From: Escherichia phage FL31
Sequence record: PP400782
DNA: 64,000 nt
Strand: one strand, 5' to 3'
Shown here: positions 8,931 to 54,528 of the stretch, one piece after another
How the letters are laid out: every line of letters starts with the position of its first letter
Numbering within the stretch: position 1 is the stretch's first letter
Made by a program: the position numbers and the translations under genes
Notes under the pieces: generated by a model
What the model was told of the DNA's origin: nothing
The model's input: only the letters and a program-made list of their open reading frames with translations
The model's database searches: none

Positions 8931-9236
8931 TTAATTTTTCCAACTTAACAACTTGTAGTGTCCTTCATTCATACGTGGTTTATCCCAAGAAATACTAATA
9001 TATGATTCGCTGTCAATAGAAGTCGCCGGGTTTTTCTCTACCGTAAGACCTTCACTTTCCAGCCATTCAATAGTATTTGCGCATAAATCAGAAGAACACC
9101 TAATCGGAAACCGGCAAGATTTTTCACCTTTAGCTGCAGTGTTATACATCTTTTCTAAAATACGCTTTTGCACGTTTTTAAAAATAGTTTCAGCAGATTC
9201 TTCAGATTTTTTATTCAGTTCAGTGTAAAGACTCAT
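8931..9236 (-). CDS. Hypothetical protein (101 aa)
   Basis: ATG 9234-9236; GAGGAG RBS; early promoter GTTTAC-N17-TACTAT at 9265-9293. Confidence 0.5.
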   Translation of the reverse strand: MSLYTELNKKSEESAETIFKNVQKRILEKMYNTAAKGEKSCRFPIRCSSDLCANTIEWLESEGLTVEKNPATSIDSESYISISWDKPRMNEGHYKLLSWKN

Positions 9237-9323
9237 AATATTCTCCTCATGTTTTGATAGGTCTATAGTAACACATCTAGGGAAGAAGTAAACAACTTTT
9301 TCAGTAAGTTATAGACCCCCTAA

Positions 9324-9339
9324 AGGGGACCGAAGTCCC
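9324..9339 (-). terminator. UUCG-tetraloop hairpin after CTS gene 9346-9972
   Basis: Minus strand GGGGAC-TTCG-GTCCCC immediately after the stop. Confidence 0.45.
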
Positions 9340-9345
9340 CATTCT

Positions 9346-9972
9346 TTACTTACGAGTTTTTGCATACTGAGCAGCGTCAGCAGCCAAACGACCTGCCTGA
9401 CGAAGTTTTTCTTTAATCGCATCGTGAAGTGGTTGAGTGTACTTCAAACCTTCGATAGTCAAATAAAGACGATAAAGGTCCGGGGTATCAAGGTTGTTGA
9501 TATGTTGGCCATTACGAAGAATATTGAATTCACGAACGAGTGAAGATGTATCGGATTCAATATCACGAACAAGCGAAGATAGTTGTTTATATTTTTTTTC
9601 CAGACTAGAAGTATCAAACTTAAGAGCAGGAGCTTTAGGAGTTGCTTTTACTTCAGGCTTAGGCTCAGGTTTTGCTATTGCTTTAGGGGTCGCAGGTTTA
9701 GGAATGGAAGGAGTAGGTTTTACTTTAGGCGAACCCGATTTAGCAGAAACACCACCACTAACAATATCTTTGAATGCTTTAGAAGCTCTGTAATATTCTT
9801 TTTGGCTGGAAGTGTCGATACCGTACATGGCTTGAACGTTTTTGAAAAACTCTGTACTAGTTTTTGTACCAGAAATAGCATCGTAAGCAGCTTGCCATTT
9901 CTCTTTTGTCATACGTACACCGGCTTCGGTGATTACTTCCGTTTCGGCTAAAAATTCATTAAAAGTATACAT
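9346..9972 (-). CDS. CTS-bearing capsid-packaged protein candidate (208 aa) with Pro/Lys-rich linker
   Basis: Trimmed to ATG 9970-9972 (MYTFNEFLAE...); RBS TAAGGA; minus-strand TATAAATA at 10008-10015; linker PKVKPTPSIPKPATPKAIAKPEPKPEVKATPKAP. Confidence 0.6.
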   Translation of the reverse strand: MYTFNEFLAETEVITEAGVRMTKEKWQAAYDAISGTKTSTEFFKNVQAMYGIDTSSQKEYYRASKAFKDIVSGGVSAKSGSPKVKPTPSIPKPATPKAIAKPEPKPEVKATPKAPALKFDTSSLEKKYKQLSSLVRDIESDTSSLVREFNILRNGQHINNLDTPDLYRLYLTIEGLKYTQPLHDAIKEKLRQAGRLAADAAQYAKTRK

Positions 9973-10007
9973 CAATGGTCCTTAGAAAGTAGGTTTATTG
10001 TTTACTA

Positions 10008-10015
10008 TATTTATA
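10008..10015 (-). promoter_or_regulatory. Late promoter TATAAATA upstream of CTS protein 9346-9972
   Basis: Minus strand reads TGTATAAATATAG about 36 nt before the ATG, directly after hairpin plus T-run. Confidence 0.5.
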
Positions 10016-10021
10016 CAAAAA

Positions 10022-10045
10022 AGCCCCAACCTTTCGGAAGGGGCT
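10022..10045 (-). terminator. Hairpin plus T-run terminator ending the tRNA/structured-RNA transcript
   Basis: Minus strand AGCCCC..GGGGCT followed by TTTTTTG. Confidence 0.55.
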
Positions 10046-10345
10046 ATATACCTTGTCGGGGTTCCACCTGCTAAGGCAAGTGTTTGTACGAAACGCCGGG
10101 ATTCGAACCCGGTTATTAAGTAGTTGACGCTACTCAATATTTTTAAAAGGCCATATCTCGACCATATCCGAACGTTCCGTCAAAAACGCTACTCGGCTTA
10201 CGGCAAAGATATTTCCTCGAATCGATAATTCGGTGCGCCGTTTCTGCTGTGATATAAGGGGGCATTAACAAAACATAAAGATTTATTAATGCCAGTCCTT
10301 ACTCAGGGAACATCAGTCCGACGACTTACCGGTAGCGACCCGGCT
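10046..10345 (-). ncRNA. Possible stable structured RNA(s), tRNA-like T-arm element
   Basis: No ORF; minus strand contains CCGGGTTCGAATCCCGG (perfect T-arm) but no cloverleaf could be built; position matches where T4 encodes small stable RNAs (recall). Confidence 0.25.
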
Positions 10346-10347
10346 TC

Positions 10348-10692
10348 TTATTTTGGCATATCATCAATTTGCTCTCGACGCCGACGCCATAGATTAATCG
10401 CTTCATAAACACATTCTGCGTTTGGTATATGACGGCAATAATATAATGATTCGCGTTTCTGGAATCGATGTTGCAATGGGATTTCGTTTAAAAGGTCTTT
10501 ACGGTCAAAGTATTCAAAACTAGTTAACCCGGAACGGTTTTTAATGAACTTCCAATGACCAAATTCATTTTGAACATAGATGTAATCTGCATGTTGGTAT
10601 AACAAATTAATCAATCGGTCTGAAATAACTGTATCATGTTCGTTAAAATAAAACGTTAAATCATGAACTACTAAGTAAACATTACCTTTCAT
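10348..10692 (-). CDS. Hypothetical protein (114 aa) within the tRNA region
   Basis: Trimmed to ATG 10690-10692 with RBS GAGGAAA; track TTG start would overlap tRNA-Arg. Confidence 0.5.
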   Translation of the reverse strand: MKGNVYLVVHDLTFYFNEHDTVISDRLINLLYQHADYIYVQNEFGHWKFIKNRSGLTSFEYFDRKDLLNEIPLQHRFQKRESLYYCRHIPNAECVYEAINLWRRRREQIDDMPK

Positions 10693-12057: not shown

Positions 12058-12228
12058 TCATCAAGTTCGGATGTGTTAAATATAAAAAAAGTTTCGTTTG
12101 TTACCAAGCGTGATATGCGGAGTTAAGTCAATGTTATACAAATTAAGAATATCAGCAATAACCTGATTAACCGCTTTGTTAATTTTCACGCCAGACGATT
12201 CTGAGATGAATTCGTTGAAAGTTTTCAT
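12058..12228 (-). CDS. Small CTS-bearing ORF (56 aa) below ORF-track cutoff
   Basis: ATG 12226-12228; MKTFNEFISESSGVKINKAV...; early promoter TTTACA-N17-TATAGT at 12261-12289. Confidence 0.4.
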
Positions 12229-12289: not shown

Positions 12290-12601
12290 TTATTTTATGC
12301 CTTTAGAAGAAATGGTATTTTGGCGTTTGGCCCCTGTTTGTGAAAAATCGTGGTTATCGATTTGGTCAACTCTCATAACACCAAATGCGGATTTAATTTT
12401 GGCTTTTGAACCTTTTTTGATACTAATTATCATATAAGTATCATTTTTCTTATATTCGAAATTTGTTACTTCAACGCCTTGATTAGAAATTGACTTAATA
12501 ATAGCATTAGCGTATTCATCATCTAATGGACCGGTAGTGTTAATAATAAAATTTTTATCTGGTTTAGTAGCTTCAGCGATAAACTCTTGATAAGTTTTCA
12601 T
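12290..12601 (-). CDS. CTS-bearing internal protein at the ipI locus (103 aa)
   Basis: Trimmed to ATG 12599-12601 (MKTYQEFIAEATKPD...), exact T4 IP leader; sits where T4 encodes ipI. Confidence 0.6.
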   Translation of the reverse strand: MKTYQEFIAEATKPDKNFIINTTGPLDDEYANAIIKSISNQGVEVTNFEYKKNDTYMIISIKKGSKAKIKSAFGVMRVDQIDNHDFSQTGAKRQNTISSKGIK

Positions 12602-39396: not shown

Positions 39397-40968
39397 ATGA
39401 AATTTAATATCTTAAGTTTGTTTGCTCCATGGGCAAAAATGGACGAACGTGATTACAAAGACCAAGAAAAAGAAAATTTAGAATCTATCACCGCACCAAA
39501 ATTGGACGACGGCGCTAAAGAATACGAAGTATCTGAAAATGAAGCACAGCAAACATATAATGCTATGTTTCAGAGAATGTTCGGTAGTCAAGAACCAGGG
39601 CTCAAATCAACCCGTGAATTAATCGATACGTATCGAAATTTGATGACGAACTATGAAGTGGATAATGCAGTCTCTGAAATAGTTTCTGATGCTATCGTAT
39701 ATGAAGATGATACAGAAGTCGTTTCTATAAATTTAGACAACACAAAATTTAGTCCAAATATCAAATCAATGATGTTGGATGAATTTAACGAAGTGTTAAA
39801 TCATTTATCTTTCCAACGTAAAGGTTCAGATCATTTTAGACGTTGGTATGTGGATTCTCGAATTTTCTTCCATAAAATTATTGACCCTAAACGCCCTAAA
39901 GAAGGTATTAAAGAGCTTCGTCGTTTAGACCCACGTCAAGTTCAATATGTCCGTGAAGTTATTACAACCACTGAAGCCGGTGTTAAAATAGTCAAGGGTT
40001 ATAAAGAATATTTCATTTATGACACATCACACGAATCTTATGCTTGTGATGGTCGCATATATGAAGCTGGCACAAAAATAAAAATCCCTAAAGCCGCGAT
40101 TGTTTATGCCCATTCTGGTTTAGTTGATTGTTGTGGTAAAAATATCATTGGTTATTTGCATCGGGCTATTAAGCCGGCGAACCAATTAAAACTTCTTGAA
40201 GATGCCGTCGTAATTTATCGTATTACTCGTGCTCCTGATCGTCGTGTATGGTATGTTGATACAGGTAATATGCCTTCAAGAAAAGCAGCCGAACATATGC
40301 AACATGTTATGAATACGATGAAAAACCGTATTGCATATGATGCTACTACAGGCAAGATTAAAAACCAGCAGCATATTATGTCGATGACCGAAGATTATTG
40401 GTTACAACGACGTGATGGTAAAGCAGTAACAGAAGTTGACACATTACCAGGTGCAGATAATACTGGAAATATGGAAGATGTACGTTGGTTCCGTAATGCG
40501 CTTTATATGGCTTTACGTATTCCTATTACCCGTATTCCAAGTGACCAAGGTGGTATACAGTTTGATGCTGGTACTTCTATTACACGAGATGAATTGACAT
40601 TTGGTAAATTTATTCGTGAGCTGCAACATAAATTTGAAGAGATATTTCTAGACCCGCTTAAAACTAATTTAATTCTTAAAGGAATTATTACAGAAGATGA
40701 GTGGAATGATGAAATAAATAATATTAAGATAAAATTTCATCGGGATAGTTATTTCTCGGAATTAAAGGATGCTGAGATTCTGGAGCGTCGCATTAATATG
40801 CTTCAGATGGCCGAACCATTTATTGGTAAATATATTTCTCACAGAACAGCTATGAAAGATATTCTTCAGATGTCTGACGAGGAAATTGAACAAGAGGCTA
40901 AGCAAATTGAAGAAGAGTCGAAAGAGGCTCGTTTCCAAGACCCCGACCAAGAACAAGAGGATTTTTAA
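39397..40968 (+). CDS. 20: Portal vertex protein gp20
   Basis: 523 aa; synteny 19-20-67-68-21-22-23. Confidence 0.95.
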
Positions 40969-41198
40969 TGGACGATTTAATTCAAGCTATTAAATCAAAC
41001 GACCTCGTTGCTACTCGAAAGTTTTTTGAAAGTGCAATGGCAGAAAAAACGGTTCGTTTGATTGAAGCACGCAAAGCAGAAATCGCTTCTCAATTTTTGA
41101 TTGAAGGCGAAGAACCCGAAGAAGAAGAGAAAGCTTCGGAAGACGACGCTGATGAAGGCGATGACGACGAAGACGAAGATGATGAGGACGATGAATAA
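40968..41198 (+). CDS. 67: Prohead core protein gp67
   Basis: 76 aa with poly-acidic C-terminus; TAATG overlap with gene 20. Confidence 0.8.
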
Positions 41199-41623
41199 TG
41201 TATCTTATCCCTGAATCTTATGAATTGGTACTCGAAAATGTCGAAGCACTTATTCCTGAAGCACAGGGCCGAATCGATGCATTGTCTTCTGCTCTCGATA
41301 TTGACGATATAAATACTATTATCGAGAACATGCTTGAAACTGAAACGGATTTAGCTGTTGCAATGGCTTCCATTATTAATGAAGAACAGTTAAATGAGTT
41401 TATCGTTAAACATGTTTCTTCTCGTGGTGAAGTCACTCGCACTAAAGACCGTAAAACTCGTGAACGTAACGCGTTCCAAACAACTGGTCTTTCTAAAGCA
41501 AAACGTAGACAAATCGCTCGTAAGGTCGTTAAAGCTAAAAAAGCTAACCCTTCAGGCCAAGTTAAAGGCTTGCGTAAGCGTAAAAAAGCTCTTAAACGTC
41601 GTAAAGCATTAGGATTAAGCTAA
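41198..41623 (+). CDS. 68: Prohead core protein gp68
   Basis: 141 aa with basic C-terminus; TAATG overlaps on both sides. Confidence 0.8.
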
Positions 41624-42264
41624 TGAATAAACCCGAGTTACTTATTGAAACTTGGGGTCAACCCGGTGAGATTATTGATGGCGTTCCAATGTTGGAATCT
41701 CATGATGGAAAAGATTCTGGCTTAAAACCAGGGCTTTATATAGAAGGTATTTTTCTTCAGGCAGAGGTTGTTAACCGAAATAAACGTTTATATCCTAAAC
41801 GCGTTTTGGAAAAAGCAGTAAGTGACTATATTAAAGAACAAGTCGAAACCAAACAAGCCCTTGGAGAATTAAACCATCCACCTCGTGCAAATGTTGACCC
41901 CATGCAAGCCGCTATCATTATTGAAGATATGTGGTGGAAAGGAAACGATGTATATGGACGTGCTAGAATTATTGAAGGCGACCATGGTCCCGGTGATAAA
42001 TTAGCTGCTAATATACGAGCTGGTTGGATTCCAGGTGTTTCCTCTCGTGGTCTTGGTTCTTTAACCGACACCAATAAAGGGTACCGTATCGTGAACGAAG
42101 GATTTAAATTAACCGTCGGCGTAGATGCCGTATGGGGACCTTCTGCTCCAGATGCTTGGGTTACTCCTAAACAAATATCAGAATCAGAAAATTCGGTGGA
42201 AATCACCAAAAACAGTGCTGATGAAGCATTTAAAGCTCTCGCAGAGAGTTTAAAAGCATTATAA
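41623..42264 (+). CDS. 21: Prohead core protease gp21
   Basis: 213 aa; synteny between 68 and 22; this protease cleaves the CTS leaders. Confidence 0.9.
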   Translation: MNKPELLIETWGQPGEIIDGVPMLESHDGKDSGLKPGLYIEGIFLQAEVVNRNKRLYPKRVLEKAVSDYIKEQVETKQALGELNHPPRANVDPMQAAIIIEDMWWKGNDVYGRARIIEGDHGPGDKLAANIRAGWIPGVSSRGLGSLTDTNKGYRIVNEGFKLTVGVDAVWGPSAPDAWVTPKQISESENSVEITKNSADEAFKALAESLKAL

Positions 42265-42297: not shown

Positions 42298-43110
42298 ATG
42301 ATCAAAGAACAACTTTTGAAAGAAGCTCAGAATATCGAGACTTCAGTTGCTCTTAATAGTGTTTTCGAATCAGTAGAACTGTCTCCGGACGTTAAAGCTA
42401 ATTTCAGCACTGTATTCGAAGCCACCGTTAAGCAGGAAGCAGTCAAACTAGCTGAATCTCATATCAAAGCTATCGCCGAAAAAGCCGAAGAAGAAGTTGA
42501 AAAGGCTAAAGAAGATGCTGAAGAGAAAGCTGATAAAAAATTGGCTGAACAAGCTTCTAAATTCCTGGACCATCTTGCAAAAGAATGGCTCGCAGAAAAC
42601 CAAATCGCAGTTGATAAAGGCATTAAAGCTGATTTGTTCGAATCCATGCTTGGTGGTCTGAAAGAACTGTTTGTTGAACATAACGTTGTTGTTCCAGAAG
42701 AATCTGTAGATGTTGTAGCAGAAATGGAAGAAGAGCTGGCCGAACATAAAGAAGAAACCGCTCGTTTGTTCGAAGAAGTTACCAAACGTGATGCATATAT
42801 CAATTACGTTCAGCGTGAAACCGCTATTAATGAAAGCGTGAAAGACCTGACTGAATCTCAGAAAGAAAAAGTTATTGGCCTGGTTGAAGGTATGGATTAT
42901 TCTGACGCATTTGGTACTAAGTTAACTGCTATTGTAGAAATGGTTAAAGGTTCTACTAAAGAAGAAGCCGCTATTACCGAAAGTATAAATACAGTTGACA
43001 ATGACGCTGCCGGTCTTAATTTTGTTGCCGAAGCAGTTGACACTACCACAACTCAGGTAGAACAGAATTCTAATGTAAGTTTATATGCGAAAGTCGCATC
43101 TCGTTTCTAA
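42298..43110 (+). CDS. 22: Prohead core scaffold protein gp22
   Basis: 270 aa, acidic coiled-coil-like. Confidence 0.9.
   Translation: MIKEQLLKEAQNIETSVALNSVFESVELSPDVKANFSTVFEATVKQEAVKLAESHIKAIAEKAEEEVEKAKEDAEEKADKKLAEQASKFLDHLAKEWLAENQIAVDKGIKADLFESMLGGLKELFVEHNVVVPEESVDVVAEMEEELAEHKEETARLFEEVTKRDAYINYVQRETAINESVKDLTESQKEKVIGLVEGMDYSDAFGTKLTAIVEMVKGSTKEEAAITESINTVDNDAAGLNFVAEAVDTTTTQVEQNSNVSLYAKVASRF
42984..42991 (+). promoter_or_regulatory. Late promoter TATAAATA for gene 23, inside the 3' end of gene 22
   Basis: AGTATAAATACAG about 137 nt upstream of the gp23 ATG. Confidence 0.55.
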
Positions 43111-52703: not shown

Positions 52704-53102
52704 TTACACTCTATTGCTTGACGCTAACTGAAGTTTAATTTGTTCAATATCGTCAGGGTTGTCTACGACCGAAAATCTAATCTCTACTATAACCGTATAG
52801 TCATCATATACTGGCGTTACACTTACAGAAAGTTTGTCGATGCGTGGCTCATAGTTACGAACAGCTGCCTGGATATTACGCTCAATCGTATCGGCTGTAA
52901 GTGGTGTCATGTTCTCGAAAAGTTCATCAACCAAATCGCATCCAAATTCAGGGTCGAAGGGGCGTGAGCCTTTTCTAGTTGTCACTATGCCAAGAAGACT
53001 ATTTTTAATAGAACGAAGTCCTACAGAACGAGCAACGTCCTTGTTCCAATCCATACGCATTTCTGGGTCGATATCTGAATAAAGTTTATTGATATTAGAC
53101 AT
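52704..53102 (-). CDS. 25: Baseplate wedge protein gp25
   Basis: 132 aa; MSNINKLYSDIDPEMRMDWNKDV... matches T4 gp25 as recalled. Confidence 0.9.
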   Translation of the reverse strand: MSNINKLYSDIDPEMRMDWNKDVARSVGLRSIKNSLLGIVTTRKGSRPFDPEFGCDLVDELFENMTPLTADTIERNIQAAVRNYEPRIDKLSVSVTPVYDDYTVIVEIRFSVVDNPDDIEQIKLQLASSNRV

Positions 53103-53728
53103 TATAGTAACTCAAAGAATTCTTTGAGGCCTCGTATTGTGTGAACGTGTGACGCCCCACATTTGGGACATTTAATAGGGGTTGCCAGATAAATTGATGG
53201 CGACACCAAAAGATTTTTAATATTGATCATATCATCTTCTGTTATAAGGCCGTAAAGGTCGTTTATTTCTGCTTCAGTTAAATCTTCAACAGGGATGGAC
53301 TCTCCATTGACAAAAACGGCCTCAATACATGAAGCAATCATTAATGCGATATTTTTATCGTCAAATAATTTAGGTTGACGGAACTTAATTTTAATACCAC
53401 TAAACGAATACCAGGGATCGGCCTGTCCATCTAATTGAGTGTGCAATAAATTCATATAGACTTGAAATGAATGCCCACAGGAACAATTCCAGGTGTGTTC
53501 TTGATTCACTTCACCTAATGAATGTGCCCACAGATTTACCAACAATAACTCGGCTTCTTGTTTAGTCAAGTTTTTAGCATTAGAGCAATTAGTGATAATA
53601 TTGTTCACTGCGGATTCAATAGTACCGGTAGCCCGCGCACCTATGAGTCCTAAATATTCTTTTAAAGTAAAGGCTCTACAATTCACTTCTTTATCGCCTA
53701 AACGTACTGTAAACGTATATTTGTACAT
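53102..53728 (-). CDS. 26: Baseplate hub protein gp26
   Basis: 208 aa, same length as T4 gp26; TAATG overlap with gene 25. Confidence 0.85.
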   Translation of the reverse strand: MYKYTFTVRLGDKEVNCRAFTLKEYLGLIGARATGTIESAVNNIITNCSNAKNLTKQEAELLLVNLWAHSLGEVNQEHTWNCSCGHSFQVYMNLLHTQLDGQADPWYSFSGIKIKFRQPKLFDDKNIALMIASCIEAVFVNGESIPVEDLTEAEINDLYGLITEDDMINIKNLLVSPSIYLATPIKCPKCGASHVHTIRGLKEFFELL

Positions 53729-53746: not shown

Positions 53747-53754
53747 TATTTATA
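53747..53754 (-). promoter_or_regulatory. Late promoter TATAAATA for gene 26 (overlapping divergent pair)
   Basis: Plus strand TATTTATAAATA reads TATAAATA on both strands. Confidence 0.5.
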
Positions 53755-53758
53755 AATA
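53751..53758 (+). promoter_or_regulatory. Late promoter TATAAATA for gene 51
   Basis: TATAAATA 17 nt upstream of the gp51 ATG with AAAGGAG RBS. Confidence 0.5.
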
Positions 53759-53775: not shown

Positions 53776-54528
53776 ATGGCTAATATAATTCGTTGTAAAT
53801 TACCGGATGGTGTTCATCGTTTCAAGCCGTTCACCGTAGCGGATTATAGAGACTTTTTACTAGTTAGAAATGATATCGAACATCGTTCGCCACAAGAACA
53901 AAAAGAAATAATTGCCGATCTGATTGATGATTATTTTGGCGAGTATCCTAAAACATGGCAACCATTTATATTCCTGCAAGTTTTTGCAGGCTCTATAGGC
54001 AAAACAAAAGTTCCCGTTATTTTCACTTGCCCTAAATGCTCTAAAGAAAAAACTGCACCATTTGAGATATATCAAAAAGAACTAGTCGAACCTGAACTTG
54101 ATGTTGCTGGTATAAAAATACGTTTTTCTTTCCCTGAAAAGTTTTATGACAACAAGGCATTAATGATAAGTGAAAACATAAAAGAAATATATTATAATGA
54201 CGAATGGTACCCATGGAATGATTTGACTGAAGAGAACCAAATCCAAGTAATAGAAGCAATAGACATTGACTCGCTCGAGAAGGTTATTGCTTCTATGAAT
54301 CCTATTAATTTGACCCTTAGATTAGGTTGTTGTGAACGACATGTTAAAACATATACCGATATCTTAGAGGTTTTTAAATTGTTAGTTAACCCTGATGAGA
54401 TTTTTACATTCTATCAGATAAACCATTCACTAGTAAAGAGTCAATACACATTGGATTCTATTATGCAAATGATTCCTGTTGAACGTGGTATTGCTTTAAC
54501 ATTAGTAGAAAAGGACCATAAAAAATGA
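53776..54528 (+). CDS. 51: Baseplate hub assembly catalyst gp51
   Basis: 250 aa; Cys pairs [13 protein letters not shown]; synteny. Confidence 0.85.

Follow-up and report, generated by a model that had tools for sequence, protein, structure and literature searches.

What does a small basic protein do for a T4-like phage when its gene lies by itself between the tRNA region and the next early transcription unit? The question is raised by a 208-amino-acid (aa) protein encoded on the minus strand of a 64,000-nucleotide (nt) stretch of DNA from Escherichia phage FL31 (sequence record PP400782; the whole stretch is called the window here), which is 99.9% identical to Escherichia phage vB_EcoM_G2469 and belongs to Mosigvirus (RB69 group, Straboviridae). 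An original prediction had placed a 208-aa open reading frame (ORF) at 9346-9972 on the minus strand, and we indeed found it there: the coding sequence, 208 codons plus stop, starts at an ATG (9970-9972), ends with TAA (9346-9348), has the N-terminal residues MYTFNEFLAETEV and is a member of PHROG 2280. The ORF program started one TTG codon earlier (9975), but the ATG was taken because it is the start in all homologues. We consider it likely that this ORF encodes an unrecognised T4-type internal head protein (Ip) that is cleaved by the prohead protease gp21, co-injected with the phage DNA and active against a host defence.

For T4, it takes no more than the first ten residues of IPIII (MKTYQEFIAE) to carry a protein, even a foreign one, into the prohead; amber-suppression mutagenesis of IPIII assigned targeting mainly to residues 4 and 7 and processing to residues 8 and 10, and gp21 cleavage follows (L/I)-x-E (PMC9026906). 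The putative capsid targeting sequence (CTS) of the 208-aa protein, residues 1-10 (MYTFNEFLAE; 9943-9972, minus strand), was delimited by homologue alignment and comparison with the T4 CTS. It has F4, F7, L8 and E10 and hence matches T4 at all four critical positions, with a first candidate gp21 site at L8-A9-E10. A second candidate site, I14-T15-E16 before A17, closes residues 11-16 (TEVITE; 9925-9942, minus strand), and its E16 is invariant in both alignments. T4 IPI has a comparable ITE at residues 17-19, and its mature form comprises 76 of 95 residues. Homologues without the leader would have shown the N-terminal match to be coincidental, but the leader was present in every homologue: in 9 of 9 phage orthologues with 98 to 30% identity, from Mosigvirus, Dhakavirus, Winklervirus, Kagamiyamavirus, Kanagawavirus, Tegunavirus, Karamvirus and Marfavirus, and in 8 of 8 remote cluster representatives. 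Each of the 17 homologues examined has an aromatic residue at position 4, and only the Marfa type lacks Phe at position 7; [LI]xE at 8-10 is kept in all but one, including every one of the 9 aligned proteins, and a second [LIV]xE at 13-16 is found in most. Mean column conservation was 0.66 in the leader versus 0.61 to 0.64 in the folded domains. No [LI]xE beyond residue 16 was common to the homologues, and therefore the pattern is Ip-like rather than scaffold-like; the 208-aa protein has one additional I-K-E site at residues 186-188 that is conserved in no homologue.

The leader pattern [FYW]x[ED][FYW][ILVM]xE occurred seven times in the six-frame translation of the 64-kb window, against 0.47 expected from 100 shuffles (maximum, 2 matches). 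All seven matches begin 3 residues past the initiator Met of minus-strand ORFs, and of the six other ORFs with the leader, five are assigned to PHROGs whose name is internal head or virion protein. In blastp, only residues 1 to about 30 of the 208-aa protein aligned to these six ORFs, and the seven proteins have no more than their first 10 to 30 residues in common; T4 Ip1-3 likewise share only the leader (PMC12373910). Both trans-acting partners are encoded as well, namely, the prohead protease gp21 (41623-42264, plus strand; Pfam Peptidase_S77, E 2.5e-107) and the scaffolding core protein gp22, which recruits CTS proteins (42298-43110, plus strand; Pfam T4_CASP, E 1.5e-89), and gp21-type cleavage sites are present in the window's own head proteins gp23 (LTE/AEIGG) and gp24 (LRE/S). 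Because the leader is conserved among homologues, matches the four positions defined by mutagenesis and shares the window with six other leader-bearing Ip genes, gp21 and gp22, the sequence data support a T4-type capsid targeting leader rather than a chance match, and the leader-like start proposed in the original prediction is thereby borne out. A Sec or Tat signal peptide, which would have a basic n-region and then a hydrophobic h-region, was rejected, since residues 1-16, as read from the sequence, carry a net charge of -4 and lack any hydrophobic stretch.

Judged by what a sequence can reveal, the protein has what defines an Ip and yet is homologous to no named Ip: the CTS residues at positions 4 and 7 and the (L/I)-x-E motif are present, gp21 and the gp22 core are encoded, the mature part is unrelated and the gene is polymorphic. 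Among the proteins scanned against PHROGs, PHROG 2280 ("unknown function") was scored by the 208-aa protein, RB69 ORF149c, fHe-Yen9-01 gp153 and the N-terminal part of a CIP9 protein, and every annotated record among the 60 tblastn matches listed says hypothetical. An exhaustive hidden Markov model (HMM) search of 1.84 billion representatives returned 13 proteins, all phage-like, and a word-indexed search of 5.8 billion proteins returned 18 clusters. HMMER searches found no family member outside T4-like phages, which answers the question of lineage specificity that had been raised with the original prediction. A function by homology was sought for the 208-aa protein in Pfam, NCBIfam and PADLOC and with a PDB sequence profile, and nothing came of it beyond a sub-threshold match to the TonB spacer and a match to ApcG with an E value of 0.9; a literature search found no paper mentioning the protein. 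In the phage collection, the 208-aa type was found in 138 records, the RB69 type in 165 and the N-domain of the third type in 525. The domains are exchanged within the family: the type-A N-domain of the 208-aa protein is fused to unrelated C-domains in CIP9, P0023 and P0026, and its C-domain is paired with a different N-domain in P0025 and P0027.

Other assignments were tried and given up. The IpIII family (phrog_5341) was rejected because the only profile match was to phrog_2280 and blastp to the IpIII homologue of the window covered residues 1-26 with an E value of 0.17. The TonB family was rejected because the match reached 16.9 bits, against an NCBIfam cut-off of 315, and covered only spacer residues 80-121. 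The prohead core or scaffold class (gp22, gp67, gp68) was rejected for lack of a Pfam match, a pI of 9.5 and the absence of a shared internal [LI]xE. A link to DNA arabinosylation was also dropped as evidence, since the distributions of the family and of the transferase do not follow each other strictly. There is an overlap between the genera of the family and the list of arabinosylating genera, but RB69 gp46:47, the arabinosyltransferase, was found in 342 records, including 57 from Acinetobacter phages without the family, and among Enterobacter-phage records 24 have the family versus 9 with the transferase.

The predicted protein has three parts after the leader. An AlphaFold2 model built from a 14-sequence alignment had a mean predicted local distance difference test (pLDDT) score of 72. 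It gave a small helical N-domain of type A with an ERMTKxKWQ motif (residues 17-75; 9748-9924, minus strand), in which three helices, 23-31, 39-50 and 57-72, reach a pLDDT of about 85. The Pro/Ala/Lys-rich linker that follows (residues 76-117; 9622-9747, minus strand) is disordered by composition and by a pLDDT of 31 to 48 (about 35 over residues 74-112); it includes IPKPATPKAIAKPEPKPEVKATPKAPAL, contains 11 Pro, 9 Lys and 7 Ala and carries a net charge of +7. The conserved C-domain (residues 118-208; 9349-9621, minus strand; FDTSSL...NNLDTPDLY...YTQP) is modelled between residues 122 and 206 as a long helical hairpin to which a third helix is added (122-153, 164-177 and 180-206) with a pLDDT of about 90. 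These 91 C-terminal residues have a net charge of +4 and an isoelectric point (pI) of 9.4, and most of the invariant alignment columns fall in them. The low-complexity Pro/Lys linker of the original prediction is thus present, and the basic C terminus is predicted to be helical, as proposed there. Fold comparison of the C-domain gave generic coiled-coil matches only. The full-length protein has a pI of 9.5, and the predicted mature form would have 192 to 198 aa, about 21.5 kDa, a pI of about 9.7 and 25 Lys; the window's own IpIII homologue (192 aa, pI 9.56, 25 Lys) is nearly equal in size and charge.

Is the gene expressed when heads are assembled? An exact match to the T4-type late promoter, TATAAATA, which depends on gp55, gp33 and gp45, lies at 10008-10015 on the minus strand, and its end is 35 nt upstream of the ATG. 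This confirms the late promoter that had been proposed between a hairpin/T-run terminator and the ribosome binding site. With the late-promoter consensus at -13 to -6 (PMC1524935), the late transcription start is predicted at 10002 (minus strand), leaving a 30-nt 5' untranslated region, and a Shine-Dalgarno sequence AAGGA (9979-9983, minus strand) lies 6 nt upstream of the ATG, with AAGGA or GGAAC in orthologues. In 8 of 8 orthologous loci, [T/G/C]ATAAATA is found at the same place, right after a hairpin, while the surrounding intergenic DNA is unalignable. Variation at the first position of the box is expected, since -13 is the least conserved position in T4-like phages (PMC1524935). In the window, TATAAATA occurs 18 times versus 8.5 expected, and it lies 25 to 30 nt 5' of the ATGs of the portal gene (39397), gp22 (42298), gp24 (45120) and three other large ORFs; the promoter of the 208-aa gene has the geometry of those of the portal gene, gp22 and gp24. 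T4-like late promoters have been reported only ahead of orthologues of T4 late genes (PMC1524935), and a non-T4 ORF with a late promoter of its own is therefore somewhat unusual.

The gene is bounded on both sides. Upstream, the intrinsic terminator of the tRNA/rnaD/rnaC unit (10017-10045, minus strand) was identified by RNA folding as a hairpin at 10022-10045 followed by a T6 run at 10017-10022. The hairpin has 6+2 bp and a folding free energy of -16 kcal/mol (z = -3.25). A simple terminator scan overlooked it because of its internal U-U mismatches, but RNA folding confirmed it; the same hairpin stands 3' of rnaC in T4, RB69, ime09 and PhAPEC2 and is an annotated terminator in MK327934. The upstream boundary of the cassette is the homologue of rnaC (species 1 stable RNA; 10087-10225, minus strand), which is 99.3% identical to T4 rnaC by blastn over 139 nt. 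At the other end, terminator scan and folding revealed a 3' hairpin, GGGGACUUCGGUCCCC, with a UUCG loop and a weak U tract (9325-9340, minus strand). A hairpin 3' of the stop codon is present in 8 of 9 loci, that is, at the 208-aa gene and its eight orthologues with the exception of fHe-Yen9-01, where a paralogue lies directly downstream. The downstream boundary is a T4-type early promoter, GTTTAC-17 nt-TACTAT (9265-9293, minus strand), of the next unit, which begins with the RB69ORF146c homologue; T4 e.8 is preceded by an equivalent early promoter. As predicted from these signals, the gene is a self-contained late cassette of late promoter, ORF and hairpin between two early units.

Several observations around these signals may be recorded here. 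A missed tRNA was considered for GGTTCGAATCC upstream of the gene and rejected, since this sequence is part of rnaC. An rnaD homologue (10232-10351, minus strand) is 88% identical to T4 rnaD, and the conservation of rnaC far exceeds that of the genes around it; Rfam and ARAGORN detected neither of the two RNAs. A 42-aa ORF (10143-10271), annotated as "hypothetical protein" in MK327934, lies within rnaC/rnaD and is probably spurious. The e.8 gene, which adjoins the junction in T4, RB69 and JS98, is missing at this place, and the RB69ORF146c homologue (8931-9236) comes directly behind the early promoter at 9265-9293. Elsewhere in the window, the palindrome TATTTATAAATA (53747-53758) constitutes two overlapping divergent late promoters, 17 to 18 nt from the ATGs of ORFs 53102-53728 (minus strand, 208 aa) and 53776-54528 (plus strand, 250 aa), the sizes of which fit T4 genes 26 and 51.

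The position of the gene was the next point of interest. The classical Ip loci are 57B-ipI-tRNA.4 and denV-ipII-ipIII-e, and the 208-aa gene lies at neither of them: it has the terminator of rnaC on one side and the early promoter of e.8/ORF146c on the other. The original prediction was right to place it outside both classical loci; it had, however, described a gene next to the tRNAs, and this is no one-off but a recurrent cassette site, with one or two leader-bearing genes in the other T-even loci inspected and none in T4. In T4, 284 nt without a gene separate the rnaC terminator from e.8, and the e.8 early promoter lies within them. The loci of ime09 (Tequatrovirus) and PhAPEC2 (Mosigvirus) have two tandem leader-bearing cassettes at the junction (902-2064), encoding about 155 and 187 aa, with a hairpin and a [T/A]ATAAATA box ahead of each gene and a hairpin with a T run behind it. 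RB69ORF149c/148c (RB69 NC_004928, 13429-13991) is of the 187-aa type, which is intact in PhAPEC2 and ime09 but frameshifted in RB69; G4500 has another split allele. In fHe-Yen9-01 (1501-2616), the tandem PHROG 2280 paralogues gp154 (MLQYNEFLKE...) and gp153 (MLEYSEFLKE...) differ in their N-domains, and the second gene begins 10 nt past the first. The gene is absent from T4, phiR1-RT and the Jiaodavirus phage ValerieMcCarty03; RB69, PhAPEC2 and ime09 have a different leader-bearing allele in its place, and about 71 of about 153 Mosigvirus-level records carry it. Position is a habit of the Ip class and not a functional requirement, and a non-classical site is compatible with membership.

On the minus strand of the window, the genes are ordered 1, 57A, 57B, two Ip-like genes, homologues of tRNA.4 to tRNA.2, tRNA-Met and tRNA-Arg, followed by the ORF150c homologue, rnaD, rnaC, the 208-aa gene, the ORF146c homologue, frd.3 and e.6 and, further on, nudE, e, Ip, denV, Ip, IpII-like and IpIII-like. 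The plus strand carries portal, gp67, gp68, gp21, gp22, gp23 and gp24 at 39.4 to 46.4 kb, with gp67 (Pfam GP67) at 40968-41198. The six further leader ORFs start at 12601, 12228, 2044, 1284, 960 and 620 on the minus strand and lie at the two classical Ip loci. One of them, the IpII-like ORF 646-960, belongs to phrog_3966, which is labelled "unknown function". Another, the 50-aa leader-bearing ORF 12076-12228 (minus strand), spans positions 1-52 of 90 in phrog_7673 (internal head protein) and resembles a truncated remnant of an Ip gene.

How might the protein act? Transcription would start late from the gp55-dependent TATAAATA promoter just past the terminator of the tRNA/rnaC unit. The 10-residue leader MYTFNEFLAE would recruit the 208-aa precursor into the gp22 core of the assembling prohead, and gp21 would then cut it off after L-A-E10, after I-T-E16 or after both, releasing a basic protein of about 21.5 kDa with a pI of about 9.7. 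The mature protein would remain in the head among the packaged DNA, with its Lys/Pro-rich linker probably along the DNA phosphates, and would be ejected into the host together with the genome. There, the helical C-domain would most likely bind and neutralise a host factor that attacks the incoming phage DNA. By analogy with the Ips of known target, this factor may be a modification-dependent (type IV) restriction system: Ip1, Ip2 and Ip3 inhibit three distinct type IV GmrSD variants (PMC12373910). We thus infer packaging, cleavage and injection of the 208-aa protein, and we regard a role against a host defence, most plausibly type IV restriction, as speculative, as we do the function of the linker as a DNA tether. 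The anti-defence role is proposed because all four leader proteins of known target inhibit type IV restriction systems and because presence/absence and allele turnover at the locus are typical of arms-race genes.

Some findings do not sit easily with an injected Ip. A literature search on virion proteomes, which covered Mosigvirus, JS98, fHe-Yen9-01 and Kosakonia, found no virion proteomics covering any family member, and the T4-like virion proteomes of phiR1-RT and ValerieMcCarty03 come from phages without the gene. Residue 2 is Tyr instead of the usual Lys, Marfa-type homologues carry Ile and not Phe at position 7, and the generic helical-hairpin fold tells nothing of function. Promoters of the early type (GTTTAC...TAnnAT) precede the six other Ip genes of the window, none of which has a late box, so exclusively late expression, as predicted for the 208-aa gene, is atypical for Ip genes in this genome. 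Moreover, the gene is present with 97% identity in NicPhage, which is restricted by BrxU, an enzyme of the GmrSD family (PMC13390438); Mosigvirus DNA contains arabinosylated cytosine and is cut by BrxU. Since NicPhage is BrxU sensitive despite its copy of the gene, BrxU is unlikely to be the target of the 208-aa protein, or the protein is insufficient against it.

A packaged and gp21-processed protein could instead have a physical job, such as histone-like condensation of the DNA, charge neutralisation or an aid to packaging or ejection; contact with the DNA would then be the task of the Lys/Pro/Ala linker, and self-association that of the helical hairpin. This would suit the mature protein, which is basic (pI 9.7, 25 Lys), has an H1/TonB-like, PAK-rich segment, is nearly equal to the IpIII homologue in size and charge and has a C-domain resembling dimerising coiled-coil hairpins, and solid-state nuclear magnetic resonance (NMR) has placed Lys residues of T4 internal proteins in contact with DNA phosphates (PMC3012670). 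However, T4 Ip3, which is equally basic, proved to be a specific GmrSD inhibitor (PMC12373910), the strong sequence conservation of the C-domain suggests a specific partner, and presence/absence and allele replacement among close relatives suit an accessory arms-race gene better. We therefore consider a physical role unlikely.

The leader could also be a mere relic of recombination with Ip genes, no longer a working targeting signal, on a late protein that stays out of the head, for instance, an assembly, lysis-timing or superinfection factor. Recombination between Ip genes is known to use leader DNA as a handle. In line with a relic, residue 2 is not the canonical Lys, and no proteomic support for packaging was found in the literature. 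A relic is expected to decay, yet the four critical positions and the second site are kept across genera at 30% identity, conservation of the leader is 0.66 versus 0.61 to 0.64 in the folded domains, and the first 10 residues of the T4 leader alone package foreign proteins (PMC9026906). A non-packaged protein is therefore improbable. Hardly to be expected is a transient accessory of the prohead core or scaffold, like gp67 or gp68, that is degraded and expelled in maturation. The late promoter, the helical build, the leader and the additional I-K-E site at 186-188 would fit such a protein, but core proteins are acidic and have several conserved internal cuts, whereas the 208-aa protein is basic, its IKE site is conserved in no homologue, and the gene is dispensable in many relatives.

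Keeping to the likely Ip, we compared it with systems of known function. T4 IPI, IPII and IPIII have leaders of 10 to 19 residues (MKTYQEFIAE; IPI, MKTFKEF...ITE) that end in (L/I)xE for gp21; they are likewise small, mostly basic and non-essential, with mutually dissimilar mature parts and variable loci on the same genome arm. Unlike them, the 208-aa protein is built in three parts, one of them a long Pro/Lys linker; it shares no sequence or fold resemblance with them past the leader, and its gene lies at a third site (rnaC/e.8) and not at the ipI or ipII/ipIII loci. It also differs from the window's other Ip genes, which have early-type promoters, in having a late promoter only. Bas37_0260, a leader-bearing McrBC inhibitor from the ipI locus of a Tequatrovirus, had its function assigned by knockout (bioRxiv 10.1101/2025.11.20.689424) and is a precedent for inhibitors of type IV restriction among unnamed proteins with a leader. 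Like the 208-aa protein, it was recognised only via its N-terminal packaging signal and is otherwise an orphan; it comes from another locus, and the comparison is by leader and description, not by mature sequence.

Further members of PHROG 2280 are RB69ORF149c/148c and, in PhAPEC2 and ime09, the proteins of 187 aa and about 155 aa, which share the locus, the leader, the cassette build (hairpin, [T/A]ATAAATA, ORF, hairpin) and the plan of leader, N-domain, PAK-linker and helical C-domain. They differ in having other N- and/or C-domains, with pairwise blastp matches that are either weak (E about 1e-4) or restricted to the leader, and the RB69 copy is frameshifted. DarA/Hdf of phage P1 and other packaged anti-restriction proteins enter the head while it is being assembled and are injected as a protection for the incoming DNA (PMC12810830); they belong to an unrelated phage lineage with another incorporation route and are likened by description, not by sequence. 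The resemblance of residues 76-117 to the spacers of TonB and histone H1 is compositional only (Pro/Lys/Ala), and the 208-aa protein has neither the C-terminal domain of TonB nor a membrane anchor. What is new, to a modest degree, is the predicted late-only expression, the modular build with a linker and the third cassette site; the known mechanism of capsid targeting is unchanged.

A wider reading can be put forward tentatively. The rnaC/e.8 junction may be an unrecognised third hypervariable Ip locus of T-even phages, with late-promoter cassettes that lie between terminator hairpins and encode modular proteins; the C-domain of the 208-aa protein would then be an injected inhibitor of a host defence to which no phage counter-measure has been assigned so far. 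The modules would be the leader, one of at least two N-domains, a Lys/Pro linker as DNA tether and a swappable helical effector domain, an arrangement that we likewise propose with reserve. The defence possibly senses arabinosylated or otherwise hypermodified cytosine DNA, and the tethered build would put the inhibitor on the DNA during its entry into the cell.

For the biology of T-even phages, each new leader-bearing family is a candidate for pairing with an uncharacterised host defence, since every solved T-even Ip (Ip1, Ip2, Ip3 and Bas37_0260) inhibits one type IV system. Several hundred sequenced T-even phages, therapeutic candidates among them, carry the family or its locus-mates, and these would give a short list of genes to delete for mapping host-range determinants of Mosigvirus and Dhakavirus. 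Naming the rnaC/e.8 junction an Ip cassette site would improve annotation and would add a late-only, modular variant to the Ip class.

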